Shown here: in pieces, positions 222 through 58,538 of the stretch | How positions within the stretch are numbered: position 1 is the first letter of the stretch | Layout: the number at the start of each line of letters is the position of its first letter | Sequence record: OL615011 | DNA: 64,000 nucleotides | Direction: 5' to 3' (one strand) | Origin: Shigella phage vB_SboS_Gloob | Program-made: the position numbers and the translations under genes | The notes under the pieces: generated by a model | The model's input: only the letters and a program-made list of their open reading frames with translations | Databases searched by the model: none | What the model was told of the DNA's origin: nothing

Positions 222-1655
222 TTAACCGAAATTCCAATTATTGACTGTTTGGGCTTTCTGCTCATCGCTCGCCGCCGAACCTGACTTGTTGAGGTCATGT
301 TTGATGTGTACATTCTCAACATATTTGGCCTCAGCCTCAGTCAGGTCCTTCTTAACTTCATTCCAATCCAGGTCAAACAGGATCTGTTTGTCTTGGTCCA
401 TACCAAACAGGAATGACTTCAGCTTTTGCTTGTTGGCATAACGGTTCTTGAGTATTGAGGCTCGGGCTTTCTTGACCGCCGCCAGTTCGTCAGGAGCATA
501 GAATGCCATGATGAAGTCGGCCACCTTCGGGATACCGATAGCATCTGCCAGGTCACTGATTCCACCATCCGTGCTATTCTGATTCTCACGATTGAACTGC
601 ATGCCAGTCCATACAGGGACATCAAACTCAAATCCCAGCGCACGAAACTCACGAGCCACAGACGTGTAATAGACGTTTGTGTTCTGCATCAGGTGGGCAG
701 GCAGGCGCGAGGAAGCAGCTTCACCAAGGTAGTCAATGATGATGACGTCAGGGGCGCGGCCTGTTGCTTGGATGTACTCAAGGATGTCGCGGCGGAATAA
801 ACCTGTGTGCCCAGCGCCGGACGGATATTCCTTGATGACGATATCACCCTTGGGTGCACCATCTTGGCGACTGCGGAGCTTCTCTATCGTGGCGATGTAC
901 TCGTGCCTTGTGAGTTTCTCTAAAGACTCAAAGTCGCGACGCATGATACGGGCATCAAGACGGTGTCGCCAGACGTTCTCGGCCACTTCGAGGGTGAATA
1001 CAAAGACGTTCAGCCCCTGCTCCGAGTACCCTGCGGTCAGGTCAATCAGCGTTGTGGTCTTACCTGCGTTGATCGCGCCTGTTACGATGTTCAGTGTCTT
1101 CTTACCAACGCCGCCGCGCGTCGCCTTGTTGAAGATCTCAACCGCGAACGGGATCTTGGCCTCGTTGGAGTTCATATGGTCATACTGCTCTGCCGCCATC
1201 TCCCAATAGATGTGGCCGAGGTATGAATCAAACCGGATCGCCAGGGCTTCCTGCAACAGGGTCGGGATGTTGTTCATCTCGTCCTTGCGCTTCTCATCCC
1301 CATAGATGTTGACGGCGGTCTTGATTGCGTTATGTACAGCCTTTTGCCGCGCCCAGGTCTCTGTTTCCTTCGCCAGCCACTCTTCATTGAAGGTGTTGTC
1401 GTTGATGTTCTCCAGGGCAGATACCGCCTGGTCAAACACATATTCGTTCAGCTTTGTCCGTTCAAGAATGATAGACAGTGCTTCGATGGACGGACGGGCA
1501 TTGTACTCTGCGGCATAACTGTCAATCAGGCCAAAGATAACCTTTTCGCCTTCGTTGTCAAAATAATCGGCTTTCAGGTACGGCAGGATCTTTCTTTGAT
1601 AATCTTCATTGTAAATCAACTGTGAAAGCACGACAGATTCGAGTAACATTGGCAA
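222..1655 (-). CDS. 41: DnaB-like replicative DNA helicase (T4 gp41 family)
   Basis: 477 aa; Walker A GAINAGKTT and RecA-like core; size matches T4 gp41; sits next to uvsX as in T4. Confidence 0.9.
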   Translation of the reverse strand: MPMLLESVVLSQLIYNEDYQRKILPYLKADYFDNEGEKVIFGLIDSYAAEYNARPSIEALSIILERTKLNEYVFDQAVSALENINDNTFNEEWLAKETETWARQKAVHNAIKTAVNIYGDEKRKDEMNNIPTLLQEALAIRFDSYLGHIYWEMAAEQYDHMNSNEAKIPFAVEIFNKATRGGVGKKTLNIVTGAINAGKTTTLIDLTAGYSEQGLNVFVFTLEVAENVWRHRLDARIMRRDFESLEKLTRHEYIATIEKLRSRQDGAPKGDIVIKEYPSGAGHTGLFRRDILEYIQATGRAPDVIIIDYLGEAASSRLPAHLMQNTNVYYTSVAREFRALGFEFDVPVWTGMQFNRENQNSTDGGISDLADAIGIPKVADFIMAFYAPDELAAVKKARASILKNRYANKQKLKSFLFGMDQDKQILFDLDWNEVKKDLTEAEAKYVENVHIKHDLNKSGSAASDEQKAQTVNNWNFG

Positions 1656-1985
1656 CTACCCCACCAAAAATTTATTGTATTCCTGAGCATTACGCTGCAT
1701 GAGGGTTACAAGGATATCCCCTGTCACCTCAGTGAACAAGTCATTTTCTTTCAAATTCACAAACATCAGACGTAATGGTTTCTTCAATATATCGGTCACG
1801 AAAGACAGGCGGGGTTCGCCGTCCACTTCGTTGATGGCAACCTTGCCGAACCGGAATTGAACGCCACGGAATTTGCCAGAAGTGATCTTGATGATCGCCA
1901 GCTGATCAGCACCAGGGTCGATGATTGTGTAGTTATTGGGGGAGTTGCCTCCCCCTCCGTTGTCACTCGGATGTGTTGATAACAT
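1656..1985 (-). CDS. hypothetical small protein in the position of T4 gene 40
   Basis: ORF between uvsX and gp41; likely start at MLSTHP overlapping the uvsX 3' end; no recognisable motif. Confidence 0.35.
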   Translation of the reverse strand: MLSTHPSDNGGGGNSPNNYTIIDPGADQLAIIKITSGKFRGVQFRFGKVAINEVDGEPRLSFVTDILKKPLRLMFVNLKENDLFTEVTGDILVTLMQRNAQEYNKFLVG

Positions 1986-3048
1986 GGTCCATCTGCTCCA
2001 GCATGTTCGCAGGCATAACAGTACCGTTAGAAACACCGAACATCTTCTTCACGTCATCGGCGAAGTCGACATTCTCCAGAAGCGGATACCAGAAATCATC
2101 ATCCATCTGACGCTTCTGATATTTCTTTTCCTTCTCAGGATCGAAGCCGCCCTTGGCTGTACGCACATACCAGCCGGAAGACGGCATATCAACGTAACCC
2201 AGAGCACGAGCGATCTCAAGCAGGCCGCTCCAGCGGTCAATGCCACCGTCGTACAGCACCGTCACAGGGAGCTTGGCTTTCTCTTTGACATGGCGACCTT
2301 TCATGATGCCGATATTGAAGTTCCAGCCCAACAGATCTTTGTCTTCCTTCACCTGAGAACGGGTGATGAACCAGATCAGGTTGGACGACAGGAAGCCCTG
2401 CTTGCCGCCTTTGATGTTAGGCTCGGCATACTGGTTGCCGATCTCGTCATAGTAGGAGTTGATCCACACCAGAACGAGTTCTTTGCTGTTGATTTCGGGA
2501 GTAATGACACGCCAGAAGCTGTTGAGAGCACGGGCGCGGGTCATATCCTGTGTATCTTTACCAGCGATGGCGTCTTCAACTTCTTTGGTAGACGGCAACT
2601 GGCTGATTGAGTCGATGAACACGATGACCTTGTCACCCTTCTTGACTTCCTGAAGGATTTGCAACAGGCGGATCTTGGTCTGCTCAACGTTGTCAATCGG
2701 CACGTACAGGACGCGATCCATGTCAATACCCATAGACGTCCAGTAATCGGCGTTGGCACCCTTTTCCGAGTCCGCAAAGACGCAAATAGCATCAGGGAAC
2801 TTGTCCATGTACGCCTTGACATCTACCAGACCGAACATCGTTTTGAAGGTACGGGAATCACCCACCATCATCTTGATACCGGAGATCAAGCCGCCGTCAA
2901 TACGCCCAGACCAGGCGATGTCAATCAGGGGAATACCAGTAGAACAGATGATAGACGGTTCCAGCGCGTCGGATTGGGACAGCACTGAAGCCTGGTCGTC
3001 ATGTTTCTTGGCAACCTTCAGCATGCGGTCCATTAATGAACTGGCCAT
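1963..3048 (-). CDS. uvsX: UvsX RecA-like recombinase
   Basis: 361 aa; Walker A-like GDSRTFKT, RecA-fold core, conserved position upstream of gene 41. Confidence 0.9.
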   Translation of the reverse strand: MASSLMDRMLKVAKKHDDQASVLSQSDALEPSIICSTGIPLIDIAWSGRIDGGLISGIKMMVGDSRTFKTMFGLVDVKAYMDKFPDAICVFADSEKGANADYWTSMGIDMDRVLYVPIDNVEQTKIRLLQILQEVKKGDKVIVFIDSISQLPSTKEVEDAIAGKDTQDMTRARALNSFWRVITPEINSKELVLVWINSYYDEIGNQYAEPNIKGGKQGFLSSNLIWFITRSQVKEDKDLLGWNFNIGIMKGRHVKEKAKLPVTVLYDGGIDRWSGLLEIARALGYVDMPSSGWYVRTAKGGFDPEKEKKYQKRQMDDDFWYPLLENVDFADDVKKMFGVSNGTVMPANMLEQMDHVINTSE

Positions 3049-3575
3049 TTCACTTCCTCTTTATTGTTGATCGTCGTTAATAATTCTACACCCATAACCT
3101 TCTGGGACAAAATGTTAACCGCCTCTTGGATGCTCTTCAGAGACATCATCTCAACAGGCGACGGTGCGTCATTATGTCGGTCGGTTAGGTACATATTGCG
3201 CAGATTGTTGTAGTTCGTGCGGTTGATGCACGCAGCGTTCAGCGCAATATTCAGGATATACATCATCTGTTCAATGGTTACATCCTTTGGCATGGCGTGG
3301 ATGTAATAGATCGAACCTTCGAAGTAGACGTCCACCAGTTCCTCTGGTATCTCGACGCCACCGCTGGCATACTCTTCGATCATCCTGAACAGAGACTCTG
3401 GTTGCTCGCTGGCGATCTTATGCGTGACAGTCGCCGAAAGACCATCACCCAGTTTAACAGGCCTGGTGTATTCAGTGATGAATACATTATGACCGCCGCC
3501 GATGATGTGCTCGGCGAAATTAGCGGATGCGTTCGCCGCGTTGTCTGCATGATATGAAACGACGACTGTAAACAT
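3033..3575 (-). CDS. hypothetical protein
   Basis: 181 aa from MFTVVVSYHADNA; start overlaps stop of upstream gene (TAATG), so translationally coupled to the nucleotide-metabolism genes. Confidence 0.45.
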   Translation of the reverse strand: MFTVVVSYHADNAANASANFAEHIIGGGHNVFITEYTRPVKLGDGLSATVTHKIASEQPESLFRMIEEYASGGVEIPEELVDVYFEGSIYYIHAMPKDVTIEQMMYILNIALNAACINRTNYNNLRNMYLTDRHNDAPSPVEMMSLKSIQEAVNILSQKVMGVELLTTINNKEEVKWPVH

Positions 3576-4120
3576 TAGAACTCCAGGGTCAGAGGGGTTT
3601 CTGTGGACTTGTCGTAATCCGCGCCGCCAGCAGCACGCAGACGATTGCGATCGTTCTTGCGCTTGTGTGCCAGCATGTAGGTTTCGGCATCCAGTCCCAA
3701 ATAACCACAAGCATACGCAAGGAAAGCAGCCAGCACATTGCGCTCTGGATGAGACATAAAATGCGTGAACAGATTTGTCACATGGAGGAAATCTGGCTTT
3801 CTCTGAATAGGTTGGTCAGACACATAACCCGTCATGTCGTACATATCATGCGGCTCCGCTTCTTTTTGTATAACGGCACACAGCATGAAGTGGACGACAT
3901 CGACCAATTCGTAAACCGCATTGACTTGGTGCCATTGCTGGTCTTTACCATAGATCTTCCAGCTGGTCGAAACTTCGTCAAGGAACTCTGCCCACTCGCG
4001 GTAGATAGAGTTTACCACCGCGACTTCGGTCCAATGCTTCTGCCACTCTTCCCCAAAGTAGGCCACGTTGGTGGCCTTTTGGAGTTCGAGCAGGCTTTTG
4101 ATATGCCCTGCTGTGATCAT
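3575..4120 (-). CDS. MazG-like all-alpha NTP pyrophosphatase (candidate dCTPase/dUTPase/dTTPase, T4 gp56 analogue)
   Basis: 181 aa; acidic metal-binding motifs EFLDE and ELVDVVHF typical of MazG/HisE-type NTP-PPases; overlaps both neighbours. Confidence 0.5.
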   Translation of the reverse strand: MITAGHIKSLLELQKATNVAYFGEEWQKHWTEVAVVNSIYREWAEFLDEVSTSWKIYGKDQQWHQVNAVYELVDVVHFMLCAVIQKEAEPHDMYDMTGYVSDQPIQRKPDFLHVTNLFTHFMSHPERNVLAAFLAYACGYLGLDAETYMLAHKRKNDRNRLRAAGGADYDKSTETPLTLEF

Positions 4121-4686
4121 TTACGTTCTCCGTAGAATTTAACGAACGGTGCCCAACCATCAAATGGATTGAGGAATTCGTAGTCCACTTCCATCTTATC
4201 AATGAAAGCCTCTATATCGTCCTCTATGATACCAGCGCGGTCGGCCTTTGAAATGCGGGTGATAGGACATTTCGTACTCAGCGCCCACTCATATTCCTGA
4301 GGGGTGCGCAGATCGCTCACGATATAATGTACATGAGGGTTCTGCTCCACCAGAGGAAGCTGGAAGCGCTTGAAGAATGCCAGGAACAGATCAGGCTGTA
4401 CGTAACGCAAGCCCGTATCGCTGCCGAGATGAAGCCAGATCTGCCGTGGGGTTAAGCCCTTGGGGTTATCAGGGTGGATGTAAGGAACGTCCTTCACGGC
4501 ATCCTCTACCTCCGCTGGCAGCCACGGGTAAATGTAGTTGGCGACCCGGCGCAGTTCATCTGAGAACGAAAGGCGCTGGATATCCATATCACCCTGTAGA
4601 TGGTGATAGCTGATGAGGGACTCCAAACAGAAGTCCTTACCGGAGCGCTTGCGCCCCGTAAAGAATTCAAGGTTCGGGTACATCAT
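4117..4686 (-). CDS. deoxynucleoside monophosphate kinase (T4 gp1 family)
   Basis: 189 aa; P-loop GRKRSGKD characteristic of T4-type dNMP kinases; start/stop overlaps with neighbours. Confidence 0.7.
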   Translation of the reverse strand: MMYPNLEFFTGRKRSGKDFCLESLISYHHLQGDMDIQRLSFSDELRRVANYIYPWLPAEVEDAVKDVPYIHPDNPKGLTPRQIWLHLGSDTGLRYVQPDLFLAFFKRFQLPLVEQNPHVHYIVSDLRTPQEYEWALSTKCPITRISKADRAGIIEDDIEAFIDKMEVDYEFLNPFDGWAPFVKFYGERK

Positions 4687-5729
4687 ACCACACCTTCCAG
4701 GAACTTAGGATCAACAATCTTGCGGTCAACCGGAGAATGGGTGAGCGCAATGTTCAAACCATGATCCTGAATCCGGTTCATGTTGATGAGCTTATCGTTC
4801 AGTTTGCAGTACAGGCAGTATGCCATTTGCATGATCAAGCCACGATCAGCATCATATTCCTTCAGGTGAGCAACCAAAGTTTCCCACGGGCTACCGATAT
4901 CACAATGATGAAGTACACCAGTGAACAGATTGCGGATATGGTTCTGGTTGGTCACGTTCTTGAAGTGGATCATGGAGTTGATGAACCCAGCTTCTACTTT
5001 GGTGTCCTTCGTGATCTTACCCAGCTGCTTCTGGCTGACTTCATTGTTGTAGTAATGAAGATTGTTGGAGAAGAGCTTGTACTGACCGACATCAACATCC
5101 AGCACCTGAGCAATCACTTCTTGAAGAATAGAGAACTCAATGAAGTTGATTGAACTCATACCCCACAGAACATCTTGCGAGCGGTTGATGACCGTCAGGT
5201 TCAGGCGACCTTCAACGATGGCGAACAACAGAGCCAGGTTACACACCATGTCTTTAGTCTTCGCTTCGCCACTCTCGCTGAACTTCGCCAGGCCAGCATC
5301 TGAATCCAGAGCCGGGTCATAGATGGTGAGGTACGCCTGGCGAGTGTTTGGGTTCTTGCGCAGACGGTTGATGACGCTATCCAGCTGGCCATGGGCGTAC
5401 AGACGCGGACCATAAGCGGCTCGCCATGTTACCCCATCATCCGAAAAGTTAGCAGCGCGAGGCAATACGCGTGACAGGAACTTTATGTCGTTGCGGCCTG
5501 ACAACACCCAGAAGGTCTCCCCAATAGCTGCGATAGCCGATGAGTTGCGACCTTCAACGGAGAGCCAGCGGTCACGAATATCGGAAACAGTGATCGTCAC
5601 ACCATCAAGGAAGCGGGTGCCGTCCGTGTTGATCTCCGCGTTACCAGGGTCCGACTCAATCCCGTATTCGCGGATAGCCAAGACAGCCTGTTTCAGCATG
5701 TCATTGTTGTTAATTGCTTTGATTTCCAT
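4683..5729 (-). CDS. thymidylate synthase-family pyrimidine hydroxymethylase (dUMP or dCMP hydroxymethylase candidate)
   Basis: 348 aa; TS-fold motifs ETFWVLSGRN (cf. ELLWFLKG), nucleophile Cys in VCNLALLF, NRSQDVLWG (cf. YQRSxDxxLG); lacks canonical ThyA PCHxxxQF context. Confidence 0.7.
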   Translation of the reverse strand: MEIKAINNNDMLKQAVLAIREYGIESDPGNAEINTDGTRFLDGVTITVSDIRDRWLSVEGRNSSAIAAIGETFWVLSGRNDIKFLSRVLPRAANFSDDGVTWRAAYGPRLYAHGQLDSVINRLRKNPNTRQAYLTIYDPALDSDAGLAKFSESGEAKTKDMVCNLALLFAIVEGRLNLTVINRSQDVLWGMSSINFIEFSILQEVIAQVLDVDVGQYKLFSNNLHYYNNEVSQKQLGKITKDTKVEAGFINSMIHFKNVTNQNHIRNLFTGVLHHCDIGSPWETLVAHLKEYDADRGLIMQMAYCLYCKLNDKLINMNRIQDHGLNIALTHSPVDRKIVDPKFLEGVV

Positions 5730-6403
5730 TAATCGATACTCCCAAAATCACGACAGAGGAATGCCATTACAGCCTGGTCTACTGTTAGACCGTGAGACTT
5801 CATCATACCTGCGGCCACCGTAGGGAACAAGCCTTTATGGCGCTGGCGATGGTCTTGAACACGCTCCCACTTCTCTACCACGAGGCTTTCATTGAAGTCC
5901 GCGCCGCCGTTGCGTGATTTAACACGGGCGATGCACGTTTCAAGAGGGGTGTCCATGAAGAGAACAACCAGTTCGCGCGGTGGGCGCGTCAGGCGGGGGA
6001 TCCAGGAACTCAGTAGAGTTGAAGGGATGATGCCTTCGAAGATCACATCGTATACCTGATATTCAGGTAGATCAGCGATGCTCAGGGCGAAGAGCATTTG
6101 TTCAGTGTCCTTCAGGGAATCAACTCCCTTGGACTTTGACTTGTCATATTTGCCGATACACACCACGTTGAATGACGGGCAGACCGTCAACATAATCTTG
6201 CCGTCATGTGTCACAACATACGCCTGAGGATCCCTCTCCGCCAGCTGAGACGGTACGGTGGATTTGCCGCTACCATTGGAGCCTTTGACGTAATAGAGTT
6301 GCCCTCGTGCTGGGTAGATCCCCTTTACGACGGGTGGTTTAATGAATGTGTGGACGGGGCGCTTGAGCAACCCCTTGAGGGAGTAGGACATAGACTGCTC
6401 CAA
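5729..6403 (-). CDS. P-loop kinase (candidate 5-hydroxymethyl-pyrimidine DNA or nucleotide kinase)
   Basis: 224 aa; Walker A GSNGSGKST; first gene of the overlapping operon. Confidence 0.45.
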   Translation of the reverse strand: MEQSMSYSLKGLLKRPVHTFIKPPVVKGIYPARGQLYYVKGSNGSGKSTVPSQLAERDPQAYVVTHDGKIMLTVCPSFNVVCIGKYDKSKSKGVDSLKDTEQMLFALSIADLPEYQVYDVIFEGIIPSTLLSSWIPRLTRPPRELVVLFMDTPLETCIARVKSRNGGADFNESLVVEKWERVQDHRQRHKGLFPTVAAGMMKSHGLTVDQAVMAFLCRDFGSID

Positions 6404-6465
6404 TAAACAAAAGGAGCTGCTATTATAGCAGCCCCTTCATCTATTGAACAGCTTCTGAACTTAAA

Positions 6466-56378: not shown

Positions 56379-57599
56379 TTATTCAGGTTTCTTCAAACGG
56401 TCCAGCAAATTGACGGAACCACGTTTGAGCACGACTTCATCACAGCGCTTTTTGTATTCCCCGCCGCCGTCATAGCTGACCTTGCCCCGAGGTTTTTCAC
56501 CGCGCCCAACCGCCTCAACACAGCGAGTGTACTTGCTCAGTTCACAGAACATGTTCTCCAGCTGCATGACGTTCATGCACTGATCTACAGGCTCTTCGGC
56601 TGACCAGAATTGCTCGCGAACATACCCATATTGGGAGTATACTGCGTCCTGATTATCCCGTAGCCAGAATATGCATTCTTCGTGAGTCATGCCGTCTTTG
56701 TTCAGGAACAGCAGATCAATACCTGCGCGACAGCCCGGTCCGGCTATCGTGAAGTGGTTCTCACTGAACGGATAACCAGGCATGTACGTGAAGTCAACCC
56801 AGATCTGGTATGCCAGGAATGGACCAAGACCTTCGATGTCGTCGTACATGCGCTGGTATACTTCCAGAGGAGTACCAAGGCGCAGCAGGTCATGGAAGTA
56901 ATTTGGATACTTGTTGACGAATGCCTTCAGGGAACGGATGACACGCATTGGCATGTACGGCTCCCAGCCTTCGATGGTGTAGAAGTCCGGCTCCGCTTCA
57001 GCGATGGCCTTGGCTTCCTTATAATCCATGTTCTGGGTCGAACCATCTTTGCAGATCAGGTTCACCATCATCCCACCGAAGCGCTGCTCTTTGTGGTTGA
57101 CAACCAGCTCAGGGAAAGCCAGGCATTGCTTCAGACCGCCCGTGTTGAAGGCATTGGTGAATACTTTACCGCCGTCGGCCTCGAACTTCTGAAGTCGTTC
57201 GCGGGTTGCGTCAAGGTTGATCTTGGCGAATTCTTTGATCGTCATCGCGCCGCCGATAGCCTGGATCGGATCCCAGAGGTTGAACATGCGGAACAGCACG
57301 CAGTTAAACATCTTGTCTGCCATACCCAGAGCATCGTTGTTGACGATGTTGTTGATCAGGTTAAGAGACTGCCTGTCGTGCTCTCTCCGGACGTTACAGA
57401 ACTTGACCTGCCGTAGTATAGGATTATTCGTCCAAGGGGCAGGAAGACGCTGGACGTCCTTCTTGACGTGGATCTTATAGCGCTCGCTCATCCATTCGTA
57501 AGACAGGCGGGTATGGGTCGGACTGAGAACCGGTTTGGCCGACTTTATCTTTTCTTCACGGACACCGCAGTACGGGACGTCCAGGGCTTTATCTTTCAT
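56379..57599 (-). CDS. hypothetical protein (406 aa), candidate nucleic-acid modifying enzyme
   Basis: Long ORF; no motif assigned by eye. Confidence 0.5.
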   Translation of the reverse strand: MKDKALDVPYCGVREEKIKSAKPVLSPTHTRLSYEWMSERYKIHVKKDVQRLPAPWTNNPILRQVKFCNVRREHDRQSLNLINNIVNNDALGMADKMFNCVLFRMFNLWDPIQAIGGAMTIKEFAKINLDATRERLQKFEADGGKVFTNAFNTGGLKQCLAFPELVVNHKEQRFGGMMVNLICKDGSTQNMDYKEAKAIAEAEPDFYTIEGWEPYMPMRVIRSLKAFVNKYPNYFHDLLRLGTPLEVYQRMYDDIEGLGPFLAYQIWVDFTYMPGYPFSENHFTIAGPGCRAGIDLLFLNKDGMTHEECIFWLRDNQDAVYSQYGYVREQFWSAEEPVDQCMNVMQLENMFCELSKYTRCVEAVGRGEKPRGKVSYDGGGEYKKRCDEVVLKRGSVNLLDRLKKPE

Positions 57600-57610
57600 G
57601 GTATCCTCTT

Positions 57611-57645
57611 AGAATACGAAAAACAGAGGCCATTATAGCCTCTGT
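57611..57645 (-). terminator. rho-independent terminator
   Basis: ACAGAGGC-TATAATG-GCCTCTGT followed by TTTTCGTATT on minus strand. Confidence 0.6.
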
Positions 57646-57668
57646 TGTTTAGTGAATAACTGTATATC

Positions 57669-58538
57669 TTAATCGATACGGGACAGCTGAGTGATAGATG
57701 ATTGCACTGGGCTGGCCACATAGATACGGACGTTGGCTTTCCACGTACCCCACAGGAGAGGCAGAGTCGGGAAGTTTACTTCGTTCAGCTCAAATACAGG
57801 GATGTAACTCTCCAGCGCTTCCCCAGAATACGCCTGGAAGCCCATCTCGGCGTACTGAAGGATCTCTTCTGGGAAATCGAAAGGTGCGTATGCAACGCCC
57901 ATGGATTCGTTCATGCCCATTCGACCCGCAGTGGCAGTGCCCGTCAGAATGATTTCGGTGATCTGGCGCTTAGGCTCGGTGGTCAACATATCAGAGAAGT
58001 CCGGCTCTTTGAATGCTGCCATGTTCTTCAGGAACTTGCCAGCCGGGTACTCTTTGCCGTCGACGGTGATGGTGTCTACCACTTTGATGCACGCCTGAGG
58101 GAATTCCCCTTCGATGCGTAGACTTTCGCGTGGGAAGCCTTTGTTGTAGTAGTAATCCAGTGCAGGCACAACTTCACCTTCATTACGGATGAACTTGCTC
58201 ATGTTGGAAGCATAAACGCGCTGTAGGCACTCATCGCCGTCGAAACCAGCAATGTGAGCCACGCCGTCATTGACGGTGGTGATATCACCCTGAGCGTCCA
58301 TGATGTCCTTCAGGATTTCCTGAATGGTTCTGGTCTGGTAAGGTTCTTGTTTAGGTGTGAGCACCAGATCCAGTTTCACATCGCAATCGTAGTACGCCGC
58401 CTCCAACAGTTCGCGGGTCTCTTCCAGCACCAGTTTCGCCTGATTGCGAATCTTACCAAAGTCGGGCGATGTGACATCGCCCTTTGCATTACCGAAAGCC
58501 AGATTCAGATTCACGTTCTTAGAAAATGTAGTTGTCAT
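57669..58538 (-). CDS. hypothetical protein (289 aa)
   Basis: ORF immediately downstream of regA. Confidence 0.5.
   Translation of the reverse strand: MTTTFSKNVNLNLAFGNAKGDVTSPDFGKIRNQAKLVLEETRELLEAAYYDCDVKLDLVLTPKQEPYQTRTIQEILKDIMDAQGDITTVNDGVAHIAGFDGDECLQRVYASNMSKFIRNEGEVVPALDYYYNKGFPRESLRIEGEFPQACIKVVDTITVDGKEYPAGKFLKNMAAFKEPDFSDMLTTEPKRQITEIILTGTATAGRMGMNESMGVAYAPFDFPEEILQYAEMGFQAYSGEALESYIPVFELNEVNFPTLPLLWGTWKANVRIYVASPVQSSITQLSRID

Follow-up and report, generated by a model that had tools for sequence, protein, structure and literature searches.

Genes for a predicted ViI-type thymidine hypermodification pathway in Shigella phage vB_SboS_Gloob

We analysed a stretch of 64,000 nucleotides of Shigella phage vB_SboS_Gloob (sequence record OL615011), referred to below as the window, and within it a block of genes predicted to act in thymidine hypermodification of the kind found in Salmonella phage ViI. 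An earlier note on this DNA had described five overlapping minus-strand genes at positions 3033-6403 and had taken them for a nucleotide-modification operon. All five open reading frames (ORFs) were found on that strand, and the motifs that had been quoted for their products (GSNGSGKST, ETFWVLSGRN, VCNLALLF, NRSQDVLWG and GRKRSGKD) are all present in the sequence. From high to low coordinates the genes are the following.

[quoted passage not shown]
4683..5729, minus strand: putative dUMP hydroxymethylase of the thymidylate synthase (TS) superfamily, 348 aa, extended at the C-terminus by helices like those of MilA, identified by PF00303, residues and fold.
4117..4686, minus strand: deoxynucleoside monophosphate (dNMP) kinase, T4 gp1-type at the level of remote homology, 189 aa, identified by PHROG 139 and its P-loop.
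3575..4120, minus strand: all-alpha NTP pyrophosphohydrolase (NTPase) of the dimeric-dUTPase/T4 gp56 family, 181 aa, identified by PF08761 and PHROG 173.
3033..3575, minus strand: phage ACT-like protein, 180 aa, identified by PF24021 and PHROG 3839 (unknown function).

The junctions between these genes, all on the minus strand, were read from the sequence.

5729: kinase gene to TS-fold gene, TAATG, one base in common.
4683-4686: TS-fold gene to dNMP kinase gene, ATGA, four-base overlap.
4117-4120: dNMP kinase gene to NTPase gene, ATGA, four-base overlap.
3575: NTPase gene to ACT-like gene, TAATG, one base in common.

A Shine-Dalgarno sequence of the GGAG type lies ahead of each start, located within the upstream gene of the block, and the overlaps suggest that translation of the five genes is coupled. 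Both the gene order and the overlaps are found again in ViI, and also in metagenomic relatives with an ACT-like protein of just 40-43% identity; the five-gene arrangement is therefore not due to chance. For the kinase gene, ATG 6391 is most likely the start, giving the 220 aa listed above, because it has a GGAG-N6-ATG spacing and the alignment to ViI gp67 begins at that codon. TTG 6403, the start used in some annotations and implied by the coordinates 5729-6403 of the earlier note, is less likely.

In megablast searches, the gene block and the window's first 25 kb matched Shigella phage Ag3 and the Salmonella phages P46FS4, SKML-39, SP-9-14 and SW16-7 at 96-98% nucleotide identity, with Ag3 and P46FS4 at 97-98% over 25 kb. 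By these matches the window is from an Ag3-like Agtrevirus of the family Ackermannviridae. The proteins of the block, the NTPase excepted, are 98-100% identical to those of Agtrevirus ChubbyThor. Gene for gene, the block is syntenic with ViI orf00061-orf00067, and the protein identities to ViI are 87.7% for the kinase, 78% for the TS-fold enzyme, 91.5% for the dNMP kinase, 84% for the NTPase, 56% for the ACT-like protein and 69% for UvsX, which is encoded next to the five genes.

The 220-aa P-loop protein, which has the Walker A motif GSNGSGKST, is by homology a 5-hmdU DNA kinase whose activity is predicted. It matched Pfam PF18748 (HMUDK) with 357 bits (E 3e-107, cut-off 27) over profile positions 1-195 of 196. 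Across 220/220 aa it is 87.7% identical to ViI gp67, which occupies the equivalent genomic position and is also named orf00067, YP_004327432 and Vi01_061c. The earlier suggestion that the extra P-loop kinase is of the 5-hmdU DNA kinase type is thus borne out both by the PF18748 score and by 88% identity to an experimentally validated enzyme: ViI gp67 moves the gamma-phosphate of ATP onto 5-hmdU in DNA (Lee et al. 2021, PMC8989533). Members of this kinase family appear as 'terminase small subunit' in RefSeq and in PHROG 800, while other records name them 'thymidylate kinase' or 'guanylate kinase'. For the Gloob protein, a small terminase was rejected on the HMUDK match and the orthology to ViI gp67, as was a housekeeping kinase of thymidylate or guanylate, and the labels 'terminase small subunit' and 'thymidylate kinase' are annotation errors.

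The second protein of the block matched the thymidylate synthase family PF00303 (59 bits, cut-off 24.3) and, as had been pointed out, it is longer than the familiar members of the superfamily (348 aa, compared with 264 in E. coli ThyA and 246 in T4 gp42). It missed the cut-offs of all NCBIfam ThyA equivalogs: the best model gave 58.8 bits (cut-off 327) and TIGR03284 gave 40 (cut-off 108). As NCBIfam holds no hydroxymethylase-specific model, this search is informative only about the missed ThyA cut-offs. Residues were compared in an alignment of 69 homologs together with E. coli ThyA, T4 gp42, the SPO1-type enzyme and the M6 enzyme, with the following correspondences between ThyA and the Gloob protein.

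ThyA C146 to C163: the catalytic Cys nucleophile, invariant in 70/70 family members.
ThyA N177 to N195: the base-specificity position, invariant in 70/70, equivalent to N194 of SPO1L1 and N185 of M6.
ThyA E58 to E71, R166 to R183 and S167 to S184: kept.
ThyA D169 to D186, H207 to H225 and Y209 to Y227: kept.
ThyA W80 to A92, H147 to N164 and R127 to Q131: lost.

The C-terminal closure segment of ThyA is also missing. The SPO1-type and M6 enzymes have residues equivalent to those of the Gloob protein in BLASTP and in the alignment, whereas T4 gp42 (D179) and MilA have Asp at the base-specificity position. The earlier note had proposed inspecting the counterpart of ThyA Asn177; it is Asn (N195), which points to uracil and not cytosine as the substrate. 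That note had also called the TS motifs of this protein non-canonical. They do differ from those of ThyA, but they are no oddity: they are what dUMP hydroxymethylases normally show, the SPO1 and M6 enzymes included.

Similarity searches and the predicted structure agree with this assignment. BLASTP gave E values of 2e-34 to the M6 enzyme, 2e-31 to SPO1L1 and 7e-13 to E. coli ThyA, and the PHROG ranking ran from 3676 (its own clade) through 5131 (the SPO1 and M6 enzymes, 7e-59) to 160 (T4 gp42, 4e-26). An AlphaFold2 model had a pLDDT of 94.3, and its best Foldseek match in the PDB was MilA (349 aligned columns, E 2e-19, TM 0.71/0.78), with a probability of 1.00, as also for ThyA; the match to ThyA structures extends over about 240-265 columns only. 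MilA was also the best sequence match in a phmmer search of the PDB (E 6e-17). Since the match to MilA is full-length, a helical extension like that of MilA accounts for the extra 84-102 residues; the enzymes of M6 (351 aa) and of the SPO1 type (383 aa) are long as well. The equivalog cut-offs that were missed, the loss of the W80 and H147 counterparts and of the C-terminus, and the greater closeness to the SPO1, M6 and MilA enzymes uphold the proposal that the protein is of the hydroxymethylase type rather than a ThyA. We infer from sequence and model that it is a dUMP hydroxymethylase whose product would be 5-hmdU monophosphate (5-hmdUMP), formed via hydration and not hydride transfer. Nearly all database records of this enzyme carry the annotation 'thymidylate synthase'.

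Homologs of the TS-fold enzyme on bacterial chromosomes (from Klebsiella pneumoniae, Paenarthrobacter, Rhizobium rhizogenes and Herbiconiux) are 330-375 aa long and 37-46% identical over the catalytic core; they too are labelled 'thymidylate synthase', yet both the Asn and the C-N motif of the hydroxymethylase type are retained. Among metagenomic homologs, many are fusions of 470-590 aa. The Gloob hydroxymethylase allele has 93-95% aa identity to alleles from certain Kutterviruses (SenASZ3, kage, FEC14) and from Limestoneviruses, and only 77-78% to the ViI/ECML-4 type, which suggests operon exchange between genera of the Ackermannviridae.

For the dNMP kinase and the NTPase, BLASTP against the T4 proteins was of limited reach (it aligned only the P-loop of the kinase with gp1, and only 16 residues of the NTPase with gp56), and family membership was decided by PHROG and Pfam profiles. 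The dNMP kinase falls in PHROG 139 (dNMP kinase, 8e-47), as does T4 gp1 (2e-65), so that the earlier label of T4 gp1-type kinase holds at the level of remote homology. The two proteins have the P-loops GRKRSGKD and GVKRSGKD, respectively (GxKRSGKD), and the Gloob protein is 91.5% identical to ViI orf00065 'dnk'. A phmmer search of the PDB with it gave no match at E <= 1, and T4 gp1 (1DEK) is consequently too distant for phmmer. Its substrate range would include 5-hmdUMP. The NTPase matched PF08761 (dUTPase_2) with 45 bits (cut-off 22.9), and T4 gp56 falls in the same Pfam family and in the same PHROG 173. Its acidic metal-binding motifs, E42xxE45 and E71xxD74, are intact and aligned with those of the C. 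jejuni dUTPase 1w2y, and the MazG family models of Pfam and NCBIfam gave no match. Hence the designation 'MazG-like NTP pyrophosphatase' is right in the sense of the superfamily and wrong for MazG proper, the family being that of gp56 and the dimeric dUTPases. The NTPase would act on dUTP and may also act on dTTP; that such a dUTPase might also act as a dTTPase was a speculation of Kutter et al. (PMC3184105).

The NTPase also departs from its neighbors in ancestry. It is 61% identical to its ChubbyThor counterpart and 84% to that of ViI, while the neighboring proteins are 98-100% identical to those of ChubbyThor, and the central ≈300 bp of its gene (3660-3990 of the window) are 97.6% identical at the nucleotide level to Kuttervirus CBA120, pertopsoe and Se_EM1. 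The alleles differ in an indel-rich segment (about residues 82-135), and the catalytic ExxE/ExxD is kept. On sequence grounds the gene is an inter-genus mosaic, with a CBA120-like recombination patch in an Ag3-like background.

Taken together, we consider it very probable that the block encodes the pre-replicative half and the first post-replicative enzyme of ViI-type thymidine hypermodification in an Ag3-like Agtrevirus. The gp56-type NTPase would convert dUTP to dUMP and possibly hydrolyze dTTP as well. The TS-family enzyme would then, through Cys163, place the methylene group of methylenetetrahydrofolate on C5 of dUMP, and release of the intermediate by hydration instead of hydride transfer would yield 5-hmdUMP. 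The gp1-type dNMP kinase would convert this to 5-hmdUDP and the host NDP kinase to 5-hmdUTP, from which the phage polymerase would insert 5-hmdU where T would go. On the DNA polymer, 5-HMUDK would phosphorylate the hydroxymethyl group to give 5-phosphomethyldeoxyuridine (5-PmdU), and the orthologs of gp247 (a serine:DNA transferase) and gp226 (a pyridoxal phosphate (PLP) decarboxylase), encoded outside the cluster, would finish the base. The end product would be 5-(2-aminoethoxy)methyl-dU (5-NeOmdU) at about 40% of thymine positions, and the DNA would thereby be protected from many restriction enzymes. The earlier note had read the combination of hydroxymethylase, NTPase and dNMP kinase as the signature of phages that replace a pyrimidine; the PHROGs common to the block and to gp1 and gp56, together with the dUMP-hydroxymethylase residues, sustain that reading.

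The genes listed for hypermodification in ViI also include those for gp160, gp226, gp243 and gp247 (PMC5889632). One of the four has its ortholog in the window.

56382..57599, minus strand: ortholog of ViI gp160 (aGPT-Pplase paralog 1), 83.8% identical to ViI orf00160 over 407 aa.

It matched Pfam PF18723 (HMUDK_hel) with 275 bits. Within 56382-58538, also on the minus strand, it adjoins a gene for a 289-aa MazG-like pyrophosphatase (PHROG 2144; 62% identical to ViI orf00161). The counterparts of gp226, gp243 and gp247 lie outside the span of the window, and the Ag3 orthologs are 92%, 85% and 88% identical to the respective ViI proteins. From these Ag3 orthologs and the gp160 ortholog in the window we predict that 5-NeOmdU takes the place of about 40% of thymines. 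It had been held that the modified base and any further decoration could not be read from the sequence. This was too cautious, for the DNA of ViI and of CBA120 has been analysed chemically, and orthology to these phages predicts 5-NeOmdU. What this analysis establishes is the identity of the genes, their orthology and synteny, the active-site residues and the fold; by analogy, Gloob itself probably carries the base.

This prediction agrees with the literature. Kutter et al. (2011, PMC3184105) noted that the 'TS' of CBA120, ViI and AG3 groups with dUMP hydroxymethylases and is encoded beside a dNMP kinase. 5-NeOmdU was found in place of about 40% of T in ViI, CBA6, CBA120 and 1.255.O, and AG3 and SKML-39 were named as phages with a ViI-like 5-HMUDK that are predicted to carry it (Lee et al. 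2018, PMC5889632). The kinase, serine-transferase and PLP-decarboxylase steps have since been reconstituted (Lee et al. 2021, PMC8989533), and the gene set of the pathway is said to be conserved across the Ackermannviridae (PMC6336734, PMC11721090). All of this was known beforehand: papers of 2011-2021 describe the cluster, how it works and what base it yields for ViI, for CBA120 and, by name, for Ag3 and SKML-39.

Several points weigh against assigning this pathway to Gloob. In ViI DNA, ordinary thymine still occupies about 60% of the T positions (PMC5889632); as far as we found, the literature reports neither the nucleoside content of any Agtrevirus nor an in vitro assay of any hydroxymethylase, dNMP kinase or NTPase of the ViI type. 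Pfam PF21448 (DNMK) was not matched by the dNMP kinase at E <= 0.01, while T4 gp1, run as a control, scored 358 bits. Finally, matching N195 to ThyA N177 needs a one-residue loop insertion, common to the SPO1 and M6 enzymes, and an ungapped BLAST alignment to T4 gp42 sets I194 opposite Asp179. The specificity loop of the Gloob enzyme, where I194 and N195 lie, contains no Asp, and the alignments favor N195 as the specificity residue.

The abundance of thymine in ViI-type DNA (PMC5889632) could be accounted for if the TS-fold protein were a working thymidylate synthase, or a dual TS and hydroxymethylase, that supplied dTMP for the ≈60% of remaining thymine, with 5-hmdU coming from elsewhere. The annotation in nearly all records says as much, and most of the dUMP-binding residues (E71, R183, S184, D186, N195, H225 and Y227) are kept. 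Nevertheless, we regard this explanation as highly improbable. The protein falls short of all the NCBIfam ThyA equivalog cut-offs (59 bits, where 108-427 are required), it has lost the counterparts of ThyA W80 and H147 as well as the C-terminal closure segment, and it is closer to the hydroxymethylases of SPO1, M6 and MilA. No second hydroxymethylase candidate is known in these genomes, although 5-HMUDK needs 5-hmdU DNA. Moreover, CBA120 showed no incorporation of 3H-thymidine (PMC3184105), and phages phiW-14 and SP10 make T from 5-hmdU after replication (PMC5889632). A canonical ThyA, in particular, was rejected on the best score of 58.8 bits, where 327 were required, and on the same losses.

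Scarcely any weight can be given to replacement of cytosine as in T4, by a dCMP or CMP hydroxymethylase, even though the best PDB matches, MilA and T4 gp42, are both hydroxymethylases of cytosine nucleotides. The invariant Asn (N195) is that of ThyA and of the SPO1 and M6 enzymes, whereas T4 gp42 and MilA have Asp; the adjacent kinase belongs to a family that acts on 5-hmdU DNA (PMC8989533); and CBA120 has no substitution by 5-hydroxymethylcytosine (PMC3184105). A dCMP hydroxymethylase of the T4 gp42 type was likewise rejected, I194/N195 being found at the position of Asp D179. Somewhat less improbable, yet still improbable, is that the pathway runs as described and the Agtrevirus end product differs from 5-NeOmdU in the appended group, the fraction modified or the sequence context. 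We found no direct chemistry for phages of the Ag3 group in the literature, the aGPT-Pplase2 enzymes of different phages transfer glycine, serine or putrescine (PMC8989533), and the NTPase gene in the Gloob window is mosaic. On the other hand, the Ag3 orthologs of gp247 (serine transferase) and gp226 (decarboxylase) are 88% and 92% identical to those of ViI, and the distant Vibrio phage 1.255.O has the same 301-Da base (PMC5889632). We retain the ViI-type pathway ending in 5-NeOmdU as the preferred explanation.

The last of the five genes encodes what the earlier note had called a 181-aa unknown; its product has 180 aa and belongs to a Pfam family, ACT_phage (PF24021, 269 bits, cut-off 27, full length). 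The family is small, with only 15 clusters at 90% identity among 5.8 billion proteins, and the site of the gene between those of the NTPase and uvsX is conserved, distant relatives included. In the AlphaFold2 model, residues 1-95 fold as beta-alpha-beta-beta-alpha-beta with a pLDDT of about 90, followed by C-terminal helices of low confidence. Foldseek gave a weak match to the ACT protein 1zpv (E 4e-3, TM 0.35/0.63), and a sequence search of the PDB returned only noise. Conservation within the family is strongest in the last ≈30 residues, AVNILSxKVxGxELLxxINxxEEVKWPVH (window 3033-3125), also among members with an overall identity of 40%, and this conserved C-terminus is longer than the 16-nucleotide overlap with uvsX and the uvsX ribosome-binding site would account for. 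Predicted with low confidence, this stretch could be a partner-binding helix.

A broader role for the NTPase and the ACT-like protein can be sketched, though we think it rather unlikely: both might be functional parts of the pathway and not bystanders. The NTPase, as a dTTPase/dUTPase, may then keep dTTP from entering the pool, and all virion thymine may arise from 5-hmdU on the polymer through a reductive enzyme, for which the gp160-type aGPT-Pplase paralog (56382-57599) is a candidate. The ACT-like protein, found only in the Ackermannviridae, may be a ligand-sensing regulatory subunit, whose conserved C-terminal helix may tie a nucleotide-pool switch to the UvsX and helicase encoded downstream.

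The earlier note had ended the block at 3033. Its five genes stand, but that end does not: uvsX, a small ORF and a gp41-type helicase gene continue the block. The features at its two sides are as follows.

6410..6438, minus strand: terminator-like GC-rich hairpin with a T run, 13-pair stem, tail TGTTTATT, directly upstream of the kinase start.
1963..3048, minus strand: gene for a UvsX/RecA-like recombinase (PF00154 and PF21134), 69% identical to ViI uvsX.
222-1655: gp41-type helicase gene, after uvsX and the small ORF, with no spacers.

The uvsX and ACT-like genes overlap by 16 nucleotides, and the block thus runs on into genes of replication and recombination. By its sequence, the hairpin at 6410-6438 closes the upstream gene and sets the 5' boundary of the block. 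Its loop and apex read TATAAT (GGGGCTGCTATAATAGCAGCTCC), which could double as a -10-like sequence; no -35 matching this TATAAT was found. A scan for sigma-70 promoters gave 10 sites where 5.5 were expected, none at the 5' end of the block and nothing convincing upstream.

A reading of the raw sequence made without tools recovered a real base-modification pathway. Public annotation of the cluster is still wrong, with the DNA kinase given as a terminase or thymidylate kinase and the hydroxymethylase as a thymidylate synthase. These errors matter for phage therapy and for sequencing, because such DNA resists many restriction enzymes.

Among known systems, the 5-hydroxymethylcytosine system of T4 (dCMP hydroxymethylase gp42, dNMP kinase gp1 and dCTPase/dUTPase gp56) shares the three enzyme families (the TS superfamily and PHROGs 139 and 173). 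It differs in its Asp179 in gp42, specific for cytosine, where Gloob has Asn195 for uracil, and in decorating the base by glucosylation, whereas the Gloob-type system uses phosphorylation followed by amino-acid transfer. The T4 genes for hydroxymethylase, dNMP kinase and NTPase are scattered; those of Gloob are contiguous. In T4 the order, in one orientation, is gene 42, b-gt, segA, uvsX, 40 and 41, and in Gloob (222-5729) it is hydroxymethylase, dNMP kinase, NTPase, ACT-like protein, uvsX, small ORF and gp41-type helicase. Relative to uvsX and the helicase gene, the gene for a pyrimidine hydroxymethylase thus has an equivalent position in the two lineages. MilA, the CMP 5-hydroxymethylase of Streptomyces rimofaciens (PDB 5jnh and 5b6d), has a similar C-terminal helical extension that ThyA does not, but it is only 20% identical, acts on a cytosine ribonucleotide, has Asp at the specificity position and belongs to a bacterial nucleoside-antibiotic pathway.

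Another is the 5-hmdU system of SPO1 and SP8. Its hydroxymethylase (gp29), at 32-34% identity, shares the C-N, FSDDG and NRSxDxxWG(x)4N motifs and the long C-terminal extension, and its logic is the same, combining a hydroxymethylase and a dNMP kinase with an NTPase (dTTPase-dUTPase) that acts on the canonical pool. SPO1 halts at 5-hmdU with all T replaced, whereas the Gloob-type system goes on with a kinase that acts on the DNA and with downstream enzymes, and only part of its T positions are modified. The closest match is the Ackermannviridae 5-NeOmdU system, on which the sources reportedly include Iyer 2013 along with Kutter 2011 and Lee 2018 and 2021. The block resembles ViI orf00061-orf00067 and the CBA120 and Ag3 equivalents in gene order, overlaps, orientation and Pfam families, with 56-92% protein identity to ViI. 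There is no difference in kind from the ViI, CBA120 and Ag3 system, the sole difference being the CBA120-like patch of ≈300 bp in the Gloob NTPase gene.

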